Of a stretch of 6,797 nucleotides of DNA, positions 2,890-6,797 are shown one piece after another. Below the pieces are notes generated by a model. That model saw only the letters and a list, made by a program, of their open reading frames with translations. It searched no databases and was not told where the DNA came from. A program made the position numbers and the translations under genes. Source of the DNA: a virus (taxonomy: Duplodnaviria > Heunggongvirae > Uroviricota > Caudoviricetes); the IMG/VR virus record IMGVR_UViG_2690316105_000023, positions 1-6,797 of that record; one strand, given 5' to 3'. The first letter of the stretch is position 1, and every line of letters begins with the position of its first letter.

Positions 2890-3328
2890 GGCTTACATCC
2901 TCAGGAAATTTTCTTCTGTAACGCGCCTCTGCCACATATTCCGCATAATCGGCGGCGATATTCAGTACATCAAGTCCCGTTGATTTATATTCTTTCGTGG
3001 AAAGTAAGAAAAAAGCCGCTCTAATAAGTTCTGGCATTGACGAAAGCGCATCAGCCGCATCATCAGGAACGCCGGAAAATTCCTGTTTCAGGGAATTAAA
3101 ACGATCATCACGCATAACCCCCCCATTTTCACAATCAGCAACAAGAATATTTTTAGCGTCATTCAGCGACCGCGTAGCGGTGTATCGGATATATTCCAGG
3201 GCTAACGTTGTCCGGTCTTTCTGTTCTTCTCCCTGCGCAAGCTCTGCCGTGCATTCAATATCAATAAGCGCGTGCATCAGCGTAGTGAGTGCGGCTGCTG
3301 CGTTCGGTGTGGTTTTATTCTGCAACAT
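2882..3328 (-). CDS. Hypothetical protein, 148 aa
   Basis: GGAG 7 nt upstream of ATG 3328; stop overlaps the next start (ATGCGTGA). No family recognised by eye. Confidence 0.7.
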   Translation of the reverse strand: MLQNKTTPNAAAALTTLMHALIDIECTAELAQGEEQKDRTTLALEYIRYTATRSLNDAKNILVADCENGGVMRDDRFNSLKQEFSGVPDDAADALSSMPELIRAAFFLLSTKEYKSTGLDVLNIAADYAEYVAEARYRRKFPEDVSHA

Positions 3329-3533
3329 ATCTTAACTCCACTGAACTTACGTATTTACACGGGTTTCCTTTTACCTGTCGCACACGGTAGGAATCGTTTT
3401 TAATCACTTCCGCTATTTGCCCAAACTTTTTTACCGCTGTACGGCGGCTCTTGTAGCGGTAAGTGTTTATCTCCCTTCTGCTCATTACCGCTTCATTGTG
3501 ATATCTGGTTATCACTATCAGCACTTCAAACAT
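3315..3533 (-). CDS. Hypothetical protein (72 aa from ATG 3533; ORF track starts at a TTG at 3563)
   Basis: AGGGGG 6 nt upstream of ATG 3533; product MFEVLIVITRYHNEAVMSRREINTYRYKSRRTAVKKFGQIAEVIKNDSYRVRQVKGNPCKYVSSVELRYVAE. Its 3' end overlaps the next gene start by 14 nt. Confidence 0.6.
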   Translation of the reverse strand: MFEVLIVITRYHNEAVMSRREINTYRYKSRRTAVKKFGQIAEVIKNDSYRVRQVKGNPCKYVSSVELRYVAE

Positions 3534-3696
3534 GACGCACCCCCTGACGAATACGGGCGACAAAAATCAGATGTGCGTGCGGCAACTGGGCGCGGGCTTC
3601 GCGTTCAGTGGCTGCGGTAACGGTGTAAATATCAATGCTGCTGTGGTGGCACTGCATAAAGCGCCAGACAAAGTAAGGGCGTGCGGATACAGCCAT
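3526..3696 (-). CDS. Small protein, paralog A1 (56 aa), unknown function; may instead be the C-terminal part of a longer ORF 3526-3990
   Basis: GGGAG 8 nt upstream of ATG 3696; product MAVSARPYFVWRFMQCHHSSIDIYTVTAATEREARAQLPHAHLIFVARIRQGVRHV, paralogous to A2. The stop overlaps the ATG of the next gene (ATGTTTGA). The same frame stays open upstream to 3990/4032, so a 154/168-aa fusion is an alternative. Confidence 0.5.
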   Translation of the reverse strand: MAVSARPYFVWRFMQCHHSSIDIYTVTAATEREARAQLPHAHLIFVARIRQGVRHV

Positions 3697-3861
3697 GTGA
3701 AAGGCTCCCAATTTAATGTTAAGGAGTCTCACCACTACGCTGCTAAACGGGGTGGCGAGACGTAACAGGGTTAGCAGACTGGCAAATTGGGAAACCAGCG
3801 AGCGCAAAGGCTCCCCCGTTACGCCCCGCCATAATGCGGGTATGGGTAGGTTTACGGACAC

Positions 3862-3985
3862 AAAAAAACCGCTTATCGGATATGGGCGGCTGTCCGCCAA
3901 TTTATTCAGGCTGCTAAACCCGGTCGCCATGTGGGCGACGGGTGAAGCATACAGCCCCGTGATAATTTTTTGCAAGCGGTTTTTA
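3862..3985 (-). ncRNA. Candidate structured RNA element between the two paralogs (speculative; possible immunity/attenuator RNA)
   Basis: On the minus-strand transcript a long-range helix (AAAAACCGCUUG pairing with AAGCGGUUUUU) encloses three local hairpins: GGCUG/CAGCC, a 10-bp ACCCGUCGCC/GGCGACCGGGU stem, and GGCGG-ACAG-CCGCC. It ends in a U7 run. It overlaps an open frame (MSKNRLQK...), so a coding interpretation is not excluded. Confidence 0.2.
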
Positions 3986-4180
3986 CTCATGATGTGACCC
4001 CTGACGAATACGAGCGGCAAATACAGCAACACAACCTGACGGGCAACGGCTACGCGCTTCGCGTTCCGTCCAGGCGGTTACGTGGATGATTTGAGATTCT
4101 CCGGCACTCAGGGCCAGAAAACGCCACACAAAGGCCGTTTGTGTGTGTACAAGGTGTGTTATATGATTTACGGCAACCAT
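3983..4180 (-). CDS. Small protein, paralog A2 (65 aa), unknown function
   Basis: AGGAG 5 nt upstream of ATG 4180; product MVAVNHITHLVHTQTAFVWRFLALSAGESQIIHVTAWTEREARSRCPSGCVAVFAARIRQGSHHE. Shares FVWRF, VTAxTEREAR and ARIRQG with A1, and the nucleotide differences in the conserved core are mostly synonymous in this frame. The stop overlaps a downstream ATG (3988-3990) in an ATGAGTAA arrangement. Confidence 0.55.
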   Translation of the reverse strand: MVAVNHITHLVHTQTAFVWRFLALSAGESQIIHVTAWTEREARSRCPSGCVAVFAARIRQGSHHE

Positions 4181-4209
4181 AACGGCTCCTAGTTTACGTT
4201 GTTGGTTAG

Positions 4210-4253
4210 AAGCCCTGCGAGTGGTAATGACACTTGCGGGGCTTTGCTTTTTT
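4210..4253 (+). terminator. Plus-strand intrinsic-terminator-like hairpin inside the 5' leader of the leftward operon
   Basis: 14-bp stem AAGCCCTGCGAGTG / CACTTGCGGGGCTT (4210-4223 / 4231-4244, two G-U pairs), 7-nt loop, then TGCTTTTTT (4245-4253). On the minus-strand transcript the same sequence is a 5' UTR hairpin preceded by an A-run. Confidence 0.45.
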
Positions 4254-4269
4254 AAGTGCTCTTGTGTTA

Positions 4270-4321
4270 AGGTGACCACCTAACAATAGAAAGGCTAATT
4301 CAATAGGTGACCACTTGTCAA
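4270..4321 (-). promoter_or_regulatory. Candidate leftward operon promoter with two direct-repeat operator-like sites (AGGTGACCAC)
   Basis: Minus strand: perfect -35 TTGACA (plus coords 4316-4321), 18-bp spacer, -10 TAGCCT (4292-4297). Identical 10-mers AGGTGACCAC at 4270-4279 and 4305-4314, each containing the GGTNACC palindrome, lie in the spacer and just downstream of the predicted start site. Confidence 0.4.
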
Positions 4322-4506
4322 CAATCAAACGCGATAAAAGCCCTAAAGGGGACGGGCAATCCCCACAATTCAGAATGCGAATTTCTCCAGAGCTAAAAGA
4401 GCAATTCGATAAAGAAGCACAGAGCGACGGCATAAGCCTAGCCAACTGGCTTAAAGAGTTGGGGCGTACTGAACTAAAGCGGCGCGGTATAGAACCCAAA
4501 GGATAA
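4315..4506 (+). CDS. Putative ribbon-helix-helix (CopG/Arc/MetJ-like) DNA-binding protein
   Basis: Segment RMRISPELKEQFDKEAQSDGISLANWLKELGRTEL fits a beta-strand / helix / helix RHH pattern. Start is uncertain: TTG at 4315 (AGGTGA 4 nt upstream) or ATG at 4375 (no clear SD), giving 63 or 43 aa. Confidence 0.45.
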   Translation: MSTIKRDKSPKGDGQSPQFRMRISPELKEQFDKEAQSDGISLANWLKELGRTELKRRGIEPKG

Positions 4507-4563
4507 AAACTATCAGCGCCGTGGTGTGAGGTATTACGGCGCATTGCTATGCAGGACAACACA

Positions 4564-4737
4564 ATGACCGATAAAGAATTGACCAAAACATTATCACCGG
4601 CACGGAAAAGACGGCGCAGAAAGATAGAGCATGAATCAGAAAGATTCGCGCCATGTGCTTTTGCCCTTGAGCAATTCCTTAAAGAGTACAGGGAAAAGCG
4701 CTCATTGCAGGTATGGCAACGAACTGAACCAGACTGA
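4564..4737 (+). CDS. Hypothetical small basic protein (57 aa from ATG 4564; ORF track starts at 4549)
   Basis: ORF MTDKELTKTLSPARKRRRRKIEHESERF... with AGGA 8 nt upstream of ATG 4564 and a KRRRRK basic patch. No family recognised; kept as low-confidence because it is co-oriented with the RHH ORF and followed by the 4833-4860 terminator. Confidence 0.3.
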   Translation: MTDKELTKTLSPARKRRRRKIEHESERFAPCAFALEQFLKEYREKRSLQVWQRTEPD

Positions 4738-4832
4738 TTGCATTGCCCACCAGCCTGATAGCGGCTATCATCCCCGTGCTTATGTTTGGGATCACACACA
4801 CAAACGGCGCAGCGTGTTATCTGTTCAGAAAG

Positions 4833-4860
4833 GCGGCTCCATTTCGGGGCCGCTTTTTTT
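4833..4860 (+). terminator. Rho-independent terminator ending the short plus-strand unit
   Basis: 8-bp GC-rich stem GCGGCTCC / GGGGCCGC (4833-4840 / 4846-4853, one G-U pair), 5-nt loop ATTTC, then seven T (4854-4860). Confidence 0.65.
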
Positions 4861-5006
4861 ATGCCTGAAAAACCCCAATTTTGTGGTTTTCCAGTCTCAC
4901 CAGGGCGAACGAATCCCCGCCCACGTTCTGGCGTATATTCAATCTTCATGGTTATAGCTCTGTGTTCAGATGATTGATGTGTGGCGGCTGTGTGCCGCCA
5001 GCGTGA

Positions 5007-5195
5007 TTAATGAACTGCCTTGCAGCTATCCTTCCAGGCCAGAACCTCGGATAAAGACCAGCCAACGGAACGACCGCCAAGTTTACGACGTGATGGGAAT
5101 TGTCCGGCCTTTTCCAGGCGGTAGCGGCATGAGCGGCTAAGGCCTGTTAGCTTTTCGCATTCTTTTTCACGTATAAACCGATCAGTGCTTAACAC
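5007..5195 (-). CDS. alpA: AlpA-family phage transcriptional regulator (excisionase-like HTH)
   Basis: 62-aa ORF with the AlpA signature EKLTGLSRSCRYRLEKAGQFPSRRKLGGRSVGWSLSEVLAW. GTG start preceded by a strong SD (AAGGGGG, 5-nt spacer). It sits immediately downstream of int, as in CP4-57-type elements. Confidence 0.85.
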   Translation of the reverse strand: MLSTDRFIREKECEKLTGLSRSCRYRLEKAGQFPSRRKLGGRSVGWSLSEVLAWKDSCKAVH

Positions 5196-5579: not shown

Positions 5580-6797
5580 TTATTTTCTTCTGGCTACTGG
5601 TAGCGTGGTTACGTTTTCATGTGTTCCCGCCAGTATCCCTAACCGCTCCATCCACATATCCAGCGCATTGCGTTTAGCATCCAGATAACGGGAATGATTA
5701 TAAACTCGCTGAATTCCTGGCATCTGATGACCTGTAAGCTGCTCCACGACATGCGGATCAACGCCTAAATCGTTCAGCATGGTTGTAAAGGTGCGCCGGA
5801 TGTCATGCAGTGACCAGTGAGGATGATTAAGCCTCCTGTGCGCTAATCTTCCATACTGCGATACGCTGGCCTCCTGTTTCACTTCCCCCAGCAATAAGCC
5901 CGTGTGCCTGTTCTGCTCCACCAGCTGCGTGACGAACGGCAGGATCGCTTCCGGTATGGGCCGGAATATTGCGACCTTCGTTTTGCTGTGCTCCTTCGGA
6001 ACGGTCCATAGCATTTCCGTAAAATCCCACTCCCCGATCTCCGATAGCCTCAGTTCTACCGTCCTGGCTCCGAAGACAATCAGGAGGCGGATTAACGCGA
6101 CGTAGTAAGGGGAAAATATTTTTTTGTCCAGTGCCTGCAATAATTCGCCAAGTTCTTTGTTACTTAAGACACGTTCGCTTATATCCGGTTTTTTCCCAAC
6201 GTCCGCCACGTTCAGATCGTCCAGAACGTTGCTGATTGCATAGCGCCGCCTACGGCAGAACTTAAGCGCCTGTTTGCACGCCTGTAGCACGAATCCGGCA
6301 GTAACAGGCGTTCGCTTTGCCACCTGGTCAAAACAGGCCAGCCAGTGCCGTAGCTCGCATTTATCCAGCGGCATAGCACCAATCTGCTGTATTACGTGAT
6401 TATTAAGTCGCCTTTTCAGGGCGATATAATCCACGCGGTTTTCCTTTACGTAATACTCAAGCCAGTAGGTGAGCGCATCGCCAACCGTTACGGGCTTTAA
6501 CGCTTCCTGTACGGTGTAATTCATCTCATGACGTGGATTTTTCCCCTCAGCCAGCCATGTGCGACACTGTGCGGCTTTTTCCCTGGCTGCTTTCAGGCTC
6601 AGATCAGGATAACTTCCCAGCTTAATGCGTTCGGGTCGTGTCTCCCTTCCCGTTCCGGCCCTGTATGTGAAATACCAGGTCAATTTCCCTGATGTTAAAT
6701 ATTTCACGCTCAGGTTTCCGCCATCACTATAAAACGTGTTTTTCTCCGCTGGCTTACCATGAAGTTTCCTTAGCAAGGTATCGCTCAGTTTGTTCAT
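5580..6797 (-). CDS. int: Tyrosine recombinase / site-specific integrase, P4-type
   Basis: 405-aa ORF. N-terminus MNKLSDTLLRKLHGKPAEKNTFYSDGGNLSVKYLTSGKLTWYFTYR is typical of the P4-integrase arm-binding domain; C-terminus has the catalytic-core signature (HDIRRTF ... HQMPGIQRVYNHSRY). The ATG lies on the last three bases of the window, so the upstream RBS and promoter are not visible. Confidence 0.93.
   Translation of the reverse strand: MNKLSDTLLRKLHGKPAEKNTFYSDGGNLSVKYLTSGKLTWYFTYRAGTGRETRPERIKLGSYPDLSLKAAREKAAQCRTWLAEGKNPRHEMNYTVQEALKPVTVGDALTYWLEYYVKENRVDYIALKRRLNNHVIQQIGAMPLDKCELRHWLACFDQVAKRTPVTAGFVLQACKQALKFCRRRRYAISNVLDDLNVADVGKKPDISERVLSNKELGELLQALDKKIFSPYYVALIRLLIVFGARTVELRLSEIGEWDFTEMLWTVPKEHSKTKVAIFRPIPEAILPFVTQLVEQNRHTGLLLGEVKQEASVSQYGRLAHRRLNHPHWSLHDIRRTFTTMLNDLGVDPHVVEQLTGHQMPGIQRVYNHSRYLDAKRNALDMWMERLGILAGTHENVTTLPVARRK

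Follow-up and report, generated by a model that had tools for sequence, protein, structure and literature searches.

Antisense-RNA immunity has been described for phages P1 and P7 (C4) and for P4 (CI). The a1/b1 targets of the C4 antisense RNA are represented by the c4-a1b1 model (RF03163) (Weinberg et al. 2010, PMC2864571). For P4, the logic of the eta/kil arrangement, in which translation of eta from an upstream promoter overrides CI-dependent termination, is summarized in PMC10111431. IsrK of Gifsy-1 was described as a structural homologue of P4 seqA (Hershko-Shalev et al. 2016, PMC4825925). IsrK has its own promoter and a Rho-independent terminator that was shown experimentally and permits partial read-through; read-through gives a longer RNA with complementary sequences and a small ORF, and the short IsrK RNA activates orf45-anrP translation in trans (PMC4825925). 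In the present work, an interval (positions 3862-3985) within a 6,797-nt stretch of DNA (the window) was analyzed. This interval had originally been predicted to encode a closed, multi-helix RNA on the minus strand, and all features below lie on that strand unless stated otherwise. Our analysis indicates that the interval very probably serves as the 5' control region of an immunity cassette, based on a C4/CI-type antisense RNA, that is carried by a P4-like satellite prophage of E. coli. As an RNA element the interval is genuine, but its kind is already on record for P1/P7 (C4) and P4 (CI).

When the window was compared with P1/P7 immI by using blastn, positions 3927-3738 were found to be 75-81% identical (E = 2e-36 to 2e-23). 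The Rfam search that accompanied the original prediction as a proposed check returned c4-a1b1, isrK, and C4, all on the minus strand. The C4 model (RF01695) matched at 74 bits (gathering threshold, 45; E = 1.6e-13). The c4-a1b1 model matched over its full length (1-53) at 3952-3903 with 44.4 bits (E = 6.1e-09), below the gathering threshold of 46.7; this shortfall is marginal and common to a bona fide member, because the seqA region of P4 scored 44.1 bits and the near-identical copy in L003 scored 45.5 bits. The isrK model (RF01394), which represents the Hfq-binding RNA IsrK, also matched over its full length (1-77), at 3939-3862, with 37.6 bits (E = 1.6e-05) against a gathering threshold of 50; P4 and the upstream cassette of L003 scored 60.8 and 63.7 bits, respectively, and the window fell below threshold owing to 11 nt inserted in the terminator loop and a deletion of 4 nt. 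A covariance model built in this analysis (R1) scored 100.6 bits on the leader. In P4 (NC_001609), the Rfam matches lie in the same order as in the window, with C4 scoring 74.9 bits. Elsewhere in the window, matches to MIR2617 and rnk_pseudo were weak, far below threshold, and were rejected.

The locus resembles the P1/P7 immI leader in that promoter, hairpin 1, hairpin 2 with a1, b1, GC hairpin/terminator, c4, a2, b2, and icd follow one another in this order. The a-site allele of P7 is the same as that of the window (UUAGCAG), whereas the b-site specificity differs (AAAUUGG in the window, GUUAGUG in P1, and GAUUGUG in P7). The surroundings differ as well. The host element is a P4-like satellite rather than a P1-type phage-plasmid; upstream of the leader are an Icd-like gene and a long ORF, where P1 has the C1 operator and promoters; and downstream of icd are a small ORF and replication genes instead of ant1/2. 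With P4, the window shares a promoter-like pair of hexamers, equally 18 nt apart and internal to a long ORF, an Icd-like gene (Kil in P4) nested in frame at the 3' end of that ORF, coupling of the long-ORF start to the preceding gene's stop codon (in P4, through an ATGA overlap with ORF88), and a satellite context of integrase, AlpA-type regulator, and primase. Unlike P4, however, the window has C4 encoded 25 nt downstream of the leader (∼107 nt in P4), a second Icd-like paralog as the upstream coupled gene (an AlpA homologue in P4), and a primase that is D5-type and shorter than that of P4. The likeness to IsrK lies in two 5' hairpins and a U-tract, with a predicted promoter assigned in the window by positional conservation and a candidate terminator whose stem is 6 bp. 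In contrast to trans-activation in Gifsy-1, a canonical C4 sits between the leader and the Icd-like gene in the window, and the expected logic is therefore repression by C4.

The predicted leader RNA, of the a1b1/seqA/IsrK type, is ∼78 nt long (3862..3939, from the predicted start to the U7 end). Sequence diversity for comparative analysis was obtained from two DNA-pattern scans of viral contigs; an Icd-alignment protein search of genome contigs found one locus only, a Shigella copy. In the model-based alignment A4, which was fitted to the structure being tested, 94.3% of cells were paired over the leader as a whole, 19 of 21 pairs showed compensatory changes, and none of 500 shuffles equaled this result. 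Hairpin 1 (GUCGCC/GGCGAC, 3939-3934 with 3928-3923) showed compensatory changes at all seven model pairs among 72 distinct sequences; in A4 the two outer pairs of the window-type hairpin 1 are mis-registered, which inflates the "not paired" class at columns 10/38 and 11/37, and in the MAFFT alignment A3 the hairpin is mis-registered between window-type and P1-type sequences. In L095 and L113, both strands of hairpin 1 are changed, to GUCACC/GGUGAC, and two codons of the long ORF discussed below are altered as a result. The 10-bp stem that had been proposed here comprises this covarying 6-bp core and a 4-bp extension (ACCC/GGGU); the 5' strand of the extension lies upstream of the predicted start, and the extension competes with hairpin 2, which itself covaries. 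In hairpin 2 (CGGG/CCUG, 3922-3919 with 3910-3907), 99.6% of cells were paired and three of four pairs showed changes on both sides. Its loop holds the target site a1 (UUAGCAG, 3917-3911), an exact complement of C4 a'. The second target site, b1 (AAAUUGG, 3903-3897), is complementary to the C4 b' loop, and its final GG opens the next hairpin.

The C4/CI-type antisense immunity RNA itself was located at 3748..3836, where the window aligns with the annotated c4 of P1/P7. Folding of 3836-3748 gave a minimum free energy (MFE) of -45.2 kcal/mol and reproduced the family fold, with a long closing stem, two internal hairpins, and single-stranded a' and b'. The recognition loops are b' CCCAAUUU (3791-3784) and a' CUGCUAA (3777-3771). 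Downstream of C4, complements of a' and b' recur (3705..3746) as a2 (UUAGCAG, 3746-3740) and b2 (AAAUUGGGA, 3714-3706), and b2 overlaps the Shine-Dalgarno sequence GGGAG of the next gene, A2 (3709-3705). These sites are placed as are the a2/b2 sites of P1, whose annotation reads "repression of icd ant translation"; for a1/b1, the P1 annotation gives the function only as "putative". Pairing between C4 and its targets was scored by exact-complement matching; plain RNAduplex predictions of C4 against the leader consisted of long non-specific duplexes and were discarded. In all 68 sequences, representing 25 a'/b' combinations and about 19 different b sequences, the leader and the downstream ribosome site each contained stretches exactly complementary to a' (over 7 nt) and b' (over at least 7 nt). 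The predicted leader is a target/decoy RNA, as are a1/b1 of P1/P7, seqA of P4, and IsrK of Gifsy-1, and not the immunity RNA. The suggestion that P4-type RNA immunity might be housed here was correct as to the system; the immunity RNA, however, lies outside the flagged interval.

Beyond the two target sites, the leader can form alternative structures. Hairpin (i) (GGCGG/CCGCC, 3898-3894 with 3889-3885), a candidate anti-terminator identified by folding and covariation, has a predicted energy of -8.9 kcal/mol and a probability of ∼0.99 in the free leader; in the alignment, 87% of its cells were paired, and its outer pair was U-A in 21, A-U in 13, and G-C in 11 cases. Terminator hairpin (ii) (AGCCGC/GCGGUU, 3891-3886 with 3872-3867) overlaps the U-tract (U7, 3868-3862) and excludes hairpin (i). 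Double changes were seen at five of five model pairs of hairpin (ii) and 93.6% of its cells were paired, in a sample whose collecting pattern fixes the terminator 3' arm. Hairpin (ii) is weak, with 6 bp and a 13-nt loop, weaker than its counterpart in P4, and in the window it is the MFE structure only when b1 is blocked. P4 timm is a Rho-dependent site, whereas the window displays an intrinsic-type hairpin followed by U7. When b1 was blocked, the terminator replaced hairpin (i) as the MFE structure in the window, and the same shift was predicted for 21 of 37 distinct leaders; in the other 16, the terminator was predicted with or without blocking, and none of the 37 lost it on blocking. A b1-dependent switch between hairpin (i) and the terminator is therefore, as modeled, not universal in the family. 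A further helix (iii) (CGGACA/UGUCCG, 3896-3891 with 3860-3855) encloses the terminator and U-tract and would be possible only after read-through; 95.5% of its cells were paired and four of five pairs showed double changes, its 3' arm being part of the sequence-collecting pattern, and its counterpart in P4 is GCGACA/UGUCGC. The original prediction had counted three local hairpins: hairpin 1, hairpin 2, and the GC hairpin/terminator pair do covary, but the third, GGCGG/CCGCC, and the terminator hairpin are mutually exclusive. The U7 end of the predicted fold was borne out. Where a processed small RNA or attenuator had been pictured, the interval contains a structured leader that ends in a U-tract and has attenuator-like alternative hairpins, predicted to be ∼78 nt long and of target/decoy type.

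It could be argued that the interval is simply an intrinsic terminator of the upstream gene A1, possibly bidirectional, with no role as a regulatory RNA. The terminator scan made no call at terminator hairpin (ii), and it reported a plus-strand terminator-like site at 3885-3898. That site, together with the strong folding of the plus strand (see below), the minus-strand U7, and the pairing of an A-run with the U-run, would suit such an element. However, a mere terminator leaves unexplained why a1 and b1 remain complementary to C4 and co-vary with it across 25 specificity types, why hairpins 1 and 2 covary and the promoter is conserved, and why the region is homologous to the leaders of P1/P7/P4, where there is no gene upstream that would need a terminator. 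We consider this explanation extremely improbable.

A σ70 promoter is predicted just upstream of the leader (3946..3975), with a -35 box TTGCAA (3975-3970), an 18-nt spacer, a -10 box TATGCT (3951-3946), and a predicted start at ∼3939. This call was made from positional homology and from a more permissive pattern search, for which shuffled sequences served as control. The position aligns with that of the annotated P1 promoter P51b (P1c4), and a matching hexamer pair occurs there in P4, L011, and L009; the P4 pair, as read in the sequence, we take to be PLE. Of 58 distinct upstream regions, 55 carry the pattern TTGNNN-N16-19-TANNNT immediately before hairpin 1, compared with 5% of shuffles. With 8 of 12 positions matching the consensus and an 18-nt spacer, the two boxes are weak, and a stricter consensus promoter scan of 3400-4600 called nothing.

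Folding of the flagged interval was carried out for both strands, as had been proposed. The 124-nt minus-strand RNA (3985 to 3862) had an MFE of -48.7 kcal/mol, compared with a shuffle mean of -32.3 (z = -4.66; none of 200 shuffles equaled it). Given that the plus strand folded nearly as strongly (z = -3.98), the strand is not identifiable from folding energy alone; the minus-strand assignment rests on the Rfam matches, and a plus-strand RNA, having no Rfam match, was rejected. The 12-bp closing helix of the original prediction (3984-3973 with 3874-3863) did form in silico. It was present in the MFE and centroid structures, with an ensemble probability of ∼1.0 in the isolated 124-mer, and its 5' arm AAAAACCGCUUG (3973..3984), which is thermodynamically strong, pairs with 3874-3863. 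Comparative evidence pointed the other way. Among 23 distinct homologous junctions, no compensatory change was seen in this helix and every observed change broke a pair: 8 of 12 pairs were invariant and 4 varied by mismatch only. U11-A115 was paired in only 9 of the 23 junctions, and CCGC was changed to CAAC in L044 and to CATG in L009/L010, with the 3' arm GCGG the same in each. The covariation that had been called for as a test thus supported the local hairpins and not the closing helix. The 5' arm of the helix begins 4 nt past the ATG at 3990, coinciding in part with the -35 box and with codons 3-6 of the long ORF. This arm lies upstream of the predicted start at ∼3939 and is therefore missing from the leader RNA of that promoter.

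These data bear on whether the interval yields a discrete, processed RNA of ∼124 nt, bounded by the closing helix and ending at U7, or whether the helix serves transcripts of the upstream gene as a long-range terminator or attenuator that is melted by ribosomes starting at ATG 3990. The folding z-score, the near-certain formation of a helix that abuts U7, its retention in 20 of 23 distinct junctions, and the position of its 5' arm, which initiating ribosomes would cover, are all in keeping with such a unit. Nonetheless, the helix lacks compensation, its CCGC being lost in L044 and L009/L010 with GCGG intact and U11-A115 being mismatched in 14 of 23 junctions; it is missing from P4, L011, P1, and P7, which have a promoter at that position; GCUUG is the conserved -35 region and the 3' arm is already constrained as terminator; and a 95-nt multi-branched "loop" would be an unusual terminator geometry. 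We regard these proposals as unlikely. As a unit, the closed ∼124-nt RNA did not hold up, since half of its closing helix, which has no comparative support, is promoter DNA. Most likely, the helix is incidental, its arms being supplied by the A-run that follows the stop codon, by GCTTG from the -35 region, and by the terminator 3' arm together with U7. A clade-specific version is similarly doubtful: the helix would act as a translation-sensing long-range terminator, in which the A-run/CCGCUU arm pairs with the terminator 3' arm, so that transcripts from the upstream Icd cassette stop at U7 when ATG 3990 is untranslated and read through when A1-coupled ribosomes cover the arm. If this were true, a third input (upstream translation) would be added to the C4-controlled switch between hairpin (i) and terminator (ii), and two tandem immunity cassettes would be linked.

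The interval is also spanned by open reading frames. A1 (3983..4180, 65 aa, stop TAA at 3985-3983) is an upstream Icd-like paralog (NCBIfam NF033153 phage_ICD_like, 64.7 bits), named by PGAP in relatives "host cell division inhibitor Icd-like protein". A long "eta-like" ORF of 154 aa (3526..3990) starts at ATG 3990-3988, 2 nt before the A1 stop (ATGAGTAA overlap), with an SD-like AGGGG at 4002-3998, 7 nt upstream, that is conserved in relatives. It spans promoter, leader, C4, and a2/b2, and A2, an Icd/Kil-like gene (3526..3696, 56 aa; NCBIfam Icd-like, 55.1 bits), is nested in it in frame; the stop of A2 overlaps the ATG of the next ORF (ATGTTTGA). P4 Kil scored 76.1 bits on the NCBIfam Icd-like model. 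The family link between A2 and P4 Kil rests on this shared model, because BLASTP of the two gave no alignment; BLASTP of the long ORF against P4 Eta likewise showed no significant similarity (E = 1.6). The long ORF runs for 97 codons without a stop, whereas the other frames contain 7 and 6; of dinucleotide shuffles, 1.7% were open (p ∼0.017). Its ATG was conserved in 31 of 31 variants, although two bases between the ATG and the stop codon vary, and the frame was open in 29 of 31 distinct variants. The central ∼40 aa were read in two different frames from nearly identical DNA. Paired +1/-1 indels hold the total length constant, which could reflect a spacing constraint rather than selection on the reading frame. 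Both P4-like clades keep the frame open over at least 339 nt; in most P1/P7-type phages, it closes 66-75 nt before the FxWRF motif that is conserved in icd.

PGAP annotates the long ORF as an intact "Icd-like protein" in L004-L007, which raises the possibility that the interval is plain coding sequence of a 154-aa protein and that its RNA structure is incidental. The 97 open codons and the conserved ATG and AGGGG speak for this view. Against it, the Icd-like model matches only the last ∼50 aa (residues 107-149), the central part is read in two frames among variants, in-frame stops occur in most P1/P7-type homologues, and two codons are altered by the compensatory changes of L095/L113. Three Rfam models match the same DNA, with three-way covariation involving C4. 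Moreover, variable columns in the leader fell 9/6/3 on codon positions 1/2/3, figures that are noisy and were used lightly but that show no third-position excess; A2 counts of 42/45/47 were set aside, as A2 is mosaic and its set includes deleted variants. Codon-level conservation of a simple 154-aa protein was thus not apparent, and this explanation is very unlikely. The alternative of "RNA or ORF" in the original prediction proved to be a false one: the same DNA carries promoter, targets, terminator, and C4, and the long ORF is probably real in the P4 eta/kil sense, that is, translated from upstream transcripts and not conserved as a protein.

Returning to the control region of an immunity cassette as the preferred reading, we find along the minus strand of the interval the A1 stop overlapped by the coupled ATG 3990, a predicted internal constitutive promoter (as P4 PLE and P1 P51b), and the predicted ∼78-nt leader, whose a1 and b1 complement the two C4 loops. 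On this basis, we propose the following mechanism. In the free leader, hairpin (i) would form and leave U7 without a terminator stem; transcription would then enter C4, which would be processed out of the transcript. By pairing with a2/b2 over the A2 ribosome site, C4 would block translation of A2 and, by polarity, expression of the downstream replication genes, as in P1/P7. Nascent leaders would be bound by C4 as well, at a1/b1. Since b1 and the 5' arm of hairpin (i) share bases, this pairing would free CCGC for the AGCCGC/GCGGUU terminator beside U7, and transcripts from the internal promoter would stop at U7, yielding a short IsrK-like RNA; the result would be negative autoregulation, as in CI/seqA-dependent termination of P4. 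Transcripts from upstream promoters, which carry ATG 3990, would be crossed by A1-coupled ribosomes through the leader, C4, and a2/b2, and both termination and C4 control would be overridden, as by P4 eta.

Annotation treats this stretch only as a gene for an "Icd-like protein", sometimes as "frameshifted"; here it appears as a leader that supplies promoter, targets, and terminator to an RNA immunity switch. By analogy with P1/P7 and P4, the cassette would decide the expression of the satellite's replication genes and of an Icd/Kil-like gene, whose family name is host cell division inhibitor. The family constitutes a natural experiment in RNA-RNA recognition, in which two 7-9-nt sites occur in 25 a'/b' combinations with perfect three-way co-variation among C4 loops, leader targets, and ribosome-site targets, and the folding models suggest a concrete route by which binding at b1 could convert an anti-terminator to a terminator. 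Among 5,426 complete genomes, 91 were found to carry the interval at full length; the element in E. coli 2015C-3121 (NZ_CP027340, 4022824-4022994) is 98.8% identical. Taken together, these findings leave the known picture of P1/P7/P4 immunity unchanged and extend it to a widespread chromosomal element of E. coli.

The window is a P4-like satellite prophage, in which genes for an integrase (5580-6797), an AlpA-type regulator (5007-5195), a D5-type primase (600-2354), and a DUF4222 protein all lie on the minus strand. The surrounding region was up to ~98% identical to E. coli chromosomes; the flagged interval (3985 to 3862, minus strand) was present at full length in 91 of 5,426 complete E. coli genomes, and hundreds of P1-like plasmids carried shorter matches to it. 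The minus-strand genes upstream (A1, 4180-3983) and downstream (A2, 3696-3526) both matched the NCBIfam family 'host cell division inhibitor Icd-like' (64.7 and 55.1 bits, respectively), in agreement with their description as paralogs. When the window was scanned permissively with Rfam (sub-gathering matches included), the minus strand yielded c4-a1b1 ('a1, b1 targets of C4'; 3952-3903, 44.4 bits, below the gathering threshold of 46.7), isrK (3939-3862, 37.6 bits, below the threshold of 50), and C4 antisense RNA (3836-3748, 74 bits, gathering threshold 45, E = 1.6e-13). As shown by blastn against phage genomes, immI of P7 and P1 was 75-81% identical to window 3927-3738 (E = 2e-36 to 2e-23). 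The matching stretch of the annotated P1 genome contains promoter P51b, 'putative a1', 'putative b1', c4 RNA, a2, b2, and icd, with a2 and b2 annotated for 'repression of icd ant translation', and in a three-way alignment with P1 and P7 the window was collinear with all annotated P1 elements. P4 (NC_001609) has the same layout, with isrK at 8692-8615 (60.8 bits, above threshold), c4-a1b1 at 8705-8653 (44.1 bits), and C4 (= CI RNA) at 8507-8420 (74.9 bits). The Rfam profiles C4 and isrK pick up CI and seqA relatives in satellites (PMC10111431). Given the order of the Rfam matches and the collinearity with P1, the flagged interval is recognizable from sequence as the leader of an RNA-based, P4-type immunity cassette; the suggestion that it is such an element thus holds for the leader, but not for the immunity RNA itself, which lies just outside the flagged coordinates, at 3836-3748.

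What argues most strongly for a functional C4 target in the interval is the joint variation of three sites, in C4, in the leader, and at the ribosome site of A2. In the window (minus strand), the C4 recognition loops are b' (CCCAAUUU, 3791-3784) and a' (CUGCUAA, 3777-3771). The leader contains a1 (UUAGCAG, 3917-3911), an exact complement of a', and b1 (AAAUUGG, 3903-3897), with an exact complement in the b' loop; downstream of C4 are a2 (3746-3740), again an exact complement of a', and b2 (AAAUUGGGA, 3714-3706), a complement of b' that overlaps the SD sequence GGGAG. Homologues were gathered from E. coli genomes and, by means of two DNA patterns, from viral contigs. When ten E. coli copies were aligned, leader b1, C4 loop b', and b2 at the A2 ribosome site varied jointly, as did the a sites. 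The collected sequences held 25 distinct a'/b' combinations, drawn from two a alleles and ~19 b sequences. In 68 of 68 sequences, a' had its exact 7-nt complement in the leader and the b' loop an exact complement of 7 nt or longer; the region downstream of C4 matched both loops just as exactly, again in 68 of 68. The window shares its a allele with P7, whereas its b allele differs from those of both P1 and P7. Recognition sites were also seen to reassort, in that the window's b' was paired with CTGCTAA and with CTGTCAA in different loci (one b' loop with both a' alleles), and all four P1/P7 a'/b' combinations were present among P1-like elements.

Folding of the minus-strand RNA (3985 to 3862) recovered in silico the proposed 12-bp closing helix, internal hairpins, and U7, with an MFE of -48.7 kcal/mol (shuffle mean, -32.3; z = -4.66; 0 of 200 shuffles as good), and the closing helix was retained in a 311-nt context. 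The plus strand folded nearly as well (z = -3.98), so folding energy by itself cannot assign the strand. Covariation was assessed with our own covariance model, R1, which comprises hairpin 1, hairpin 2, the terminator hairpin, and an outer helix (76 matches aligned, 72 distinct). The alignment was fitted to the tested structure, and its sequences had been collected with a pattern that prescribed the 3' arms of the terminator and outer helix. In it, 94.3% of cells were paired and changes on both sides occurred at 19 of 21 pairs; these values were reached by 0 of 500 column shuffles, and slid controls were only 28-56% paired. Hairpin 1 (GUCGCC/GGCGAC, 3939-3934 with 3928-3923) covaried at 7 of 7 model pairs, hairpin 2 (3922-3919 with 3910-3907) was 99.6% paired, and the terminator (AGCCGC/GCGGUU, 3891-3886 with 3872-3867), with its 3' arm so fixed, also covaried. 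Hairpin (i), a candidate anti-terminator (GGCGG/CCGCC, 3898-3894 with 3889-3885), was 87% paired, with U-A (21), A-U (13), or G-C (11) as its covarying outer pair. Covariation in homologues supports three local elements: hairpin 1, hairpin 2, and the hairpin (i)/terminator pair. The outer helix (CGGACA/UGUCCG, 3896-3891 with 3860-3855) covaried as GGACA/UGUCC versus GGGUA/UGCCC, subject to ascertainment bias because its 3' arm was in the search pattern; P4 has an equivalent, GCGACA/UGUCGC. Since it brackets the terminator and U-tract, this helix would form only after read-through, and a processing element or a stability element of the read-through RNA are both possibilities. A more distant leader class, found in ten loci via the terminator pattern and matched weakly by R1 (24-52 bits), has a promoter, a single hairpin, and then GCGG-N-CCGC...GCGGTTTTTTTGTG(T/C)CCGT; these are probably related C4-type cassettes with another leader architecture.

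The closing helix (3984-3973 with 3874-3863), the most eye-catching feature of the original prediction, was the least supported. Among 23 distinct A1-leader junction sequences, 0 of 12 pairs showed a compensatory change; 8 were invariant and 4 departed by mismatch only, pair U11-A115 being formed in just 9 of the 23. The 5' arm changed from CCGC to CAAC in one homologous locus (L044) and to CATG in two others (L009 and L010), each with an unchanged 3' arm, and alignments and sequence comparison found no closing helix in P4, P1, P7, or locus L011. Moreover, the 5' arm overlaps a minus-strand promoter (-35 TTGCAA, 3975-3970; 18-nt spacer; -10 TATGCT, 3951-3946) predicted by alignment to homologous promoters, and the helix is most likely incidental. 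The window's promoter pair aligned with annotated P51b of P1 (TTGACC/TATAGT) and with TTGCCT-18-TATAGT, read from the P4 sequence and taken as PLE; L011 and L009 carry equivalents. Of 58 distinct upstream regions, 55 carried such a pair immediately before hairpin 1, versus 5% of shuffles. The predicted start, G3939, is 7 nt past the -10 box and is the exact first position of the isrK match; RNA from this promoter would therefore lack both the closing-helix 5' arm and the ACCC strand extending the proposed 10-bp stem, of which only the core GUCGCC/GGCGAC is supported by covariation.

Hairpin (i) and the terminator draw on the same CCGC, so only one of them can form at a time. Folding of the free leader (3941-3862) gave hairpin (i) as the dominant structure (-8.9 kcal/mol, P ~0.99), with no stem next to U7; when b1 was made unavailable, the MFE structure became the terminator hairpin that immediately precedes U7. 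Of 37 distinct leaders, 21 were predicted to switch in this way and 16 (mostly P1-type) to form the terminator with or without the block; folding predicted loss of the terminator upon the block in 0 of 37. In P4, b1 likewise overlaps a short anti-terminator stem, as read from its sequence. For IsrK, regarded by its authors as a structural homologue of P4 seqA, a Rho-independent terminator forms the 3' end and is bypassed in a fraction of transcripts (PMC4825925).

The interval also lies in a long ORF (ATG 3990 to the A2 stop, 154 aa), which had left the choice between RNA and protein ambiguous. The 97 codons before A2 contained 0 stops (the two alternative frames had 7 and 6), and were open in only 1.7% of dinucleotide shuffles. 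The ATG, 2 nt before the A1 stop (ATGAGTAA) and with an SD-like AGGGG upstream, was kept in 31 of 31 distinct variants, and the frame was open in 29 of 31. The protein sequence, however, is not conserved. Owing to indels after hairpin (i) (+1) and in the C4 loop (-1), ~40 central residues were read in two frames between variants with nearly identical DNA; compensatory hairpin changes in loci L095 and L113 recoded two codons, and variable leader columns fell over codon positions 1/2/3 as 9/6/3. In both P4-like clades the frame stayed open over at least 339 nt, whereas in most P1/P7-type phages it was closed by an in-frame stop 66-75 nt before the FxWRF motif conserved in icd. The arrangement is that described for P4 eta/kil, in which, as Forti et al. 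reportedly found in 1999, Eta translation from upstream prevents termination. On the P4 sequence, the long ORF (8812/8767-8168) runs across both Rfam matches (isrK and C4) and has an ATGA overlap with the ORF88 stop, and its last 65 codons (Kil) match the Icd-like model (76.1 bits). Eta holds the constitutive promoter, seqA, and CI, with Kil as its in-frame truncated form; full-length Eta is made only when transcription starts at a late promoter farther upstream; its translation is coupled to the preceding gene and blocks termination (PMC10111431). With such nesting, RNA and ORF are no true alternatives, and most likely the same DNA serves as both, the ORF being selected for being translated and not for its sequence. 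In the PGAP annotation (L003, L008, L009), the long ORF is called 'Icd-like protein, frameshifted' in strains with the window-type allele and 'intact' in strains with the +1/-1 allele, and these loci carry no annotated ncRNA feature; the 'frameshift' is spurious and comes from treating an RNA-dense leader as a protein gene. The long ORF is broken in two natural variants, L143 (2659-2782; T6 instead of T7) and L140 (internal deletion), which are potential natural tests of the need for an open frame.

The closest relative, L003 (E. coli 2015C-3121), whose positions 4189-4865 were compared with window 3983-4330, carries two complete tandem cassettes, the first with isrK (63.7 bits), C4 (77.6 bits), and Icd-like A1, and the second with a1b1/isrK, C4 (74 bits), and A2. 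Weaker R1 matches ~470 nt upstream were present in seven loci; in the window and L004-L007, the A1 gene is the sole remnant of the upstream cassette. In the window, a divergent small plus-strand ORF (4315-4506; YlcI/YnfO family in relatives) replaces that cassette's leader and C4, and its product matched Pfam HicB (E = 4.9e-4). Upstream of A1 on the minus strand are two direct copies of GTGGTCACCT, ~26 nt apart (~4270-4316), the first directly after a TTGACA hexamer; they may be operator sites for this small RHH/HicB-like protein. A strong 15-bp hairpin (GAAGCCCTGCGAGTGG...CTTGCGGGGCTTT, 4209-4245) between A1 and the divergent ORF was called terminator-like on the plus strand, followed by GCTTTTTTAA; read on the minus strand, it would lie in the 5' UTR of A1. 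The A1 ribosome-site context (4181-4200, AAACUAGGAGCC...AUG) is similar to that of A2 (AAAUUGGGAGCC...AUG) and has two mismatches to the resident b' loop, so A1 probably escapes repression by the window's C4; this context may be a relic of the lost cassette's own specificity. Downstream, the ATG of a 72-aa ORF (3315-3533), matched by no family in our searches, overlaps the A2 stop (ATGTTTGA) with the ATG-NN-stop geometry of the A1/long-ORF junction, resembling the icd/ant1 overlap of P1.

The interval is a well-supported RNA regulatory element, but its family is already known, as is its neighbour; new relative to that family are the b-site specificity and the Icd paralog coupled upstream. Combining the predicted b1 switch with what is established for P1/P7, namely that C4 prevents translation of icd at a2/b2, we propose that C4 would repress A2 and the downstream genes and would feed back on its own leader via a1/b1, with pairing at b1 making this site unavailable and favouring the terminator hairpin before U7. 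Translation arriving from upstream would override both repression and feedback. To judge from the alleles, the recognition sites look like a combinatorial heteroimmunity code common to P1-type phage-plasmids and P4-like satellites.
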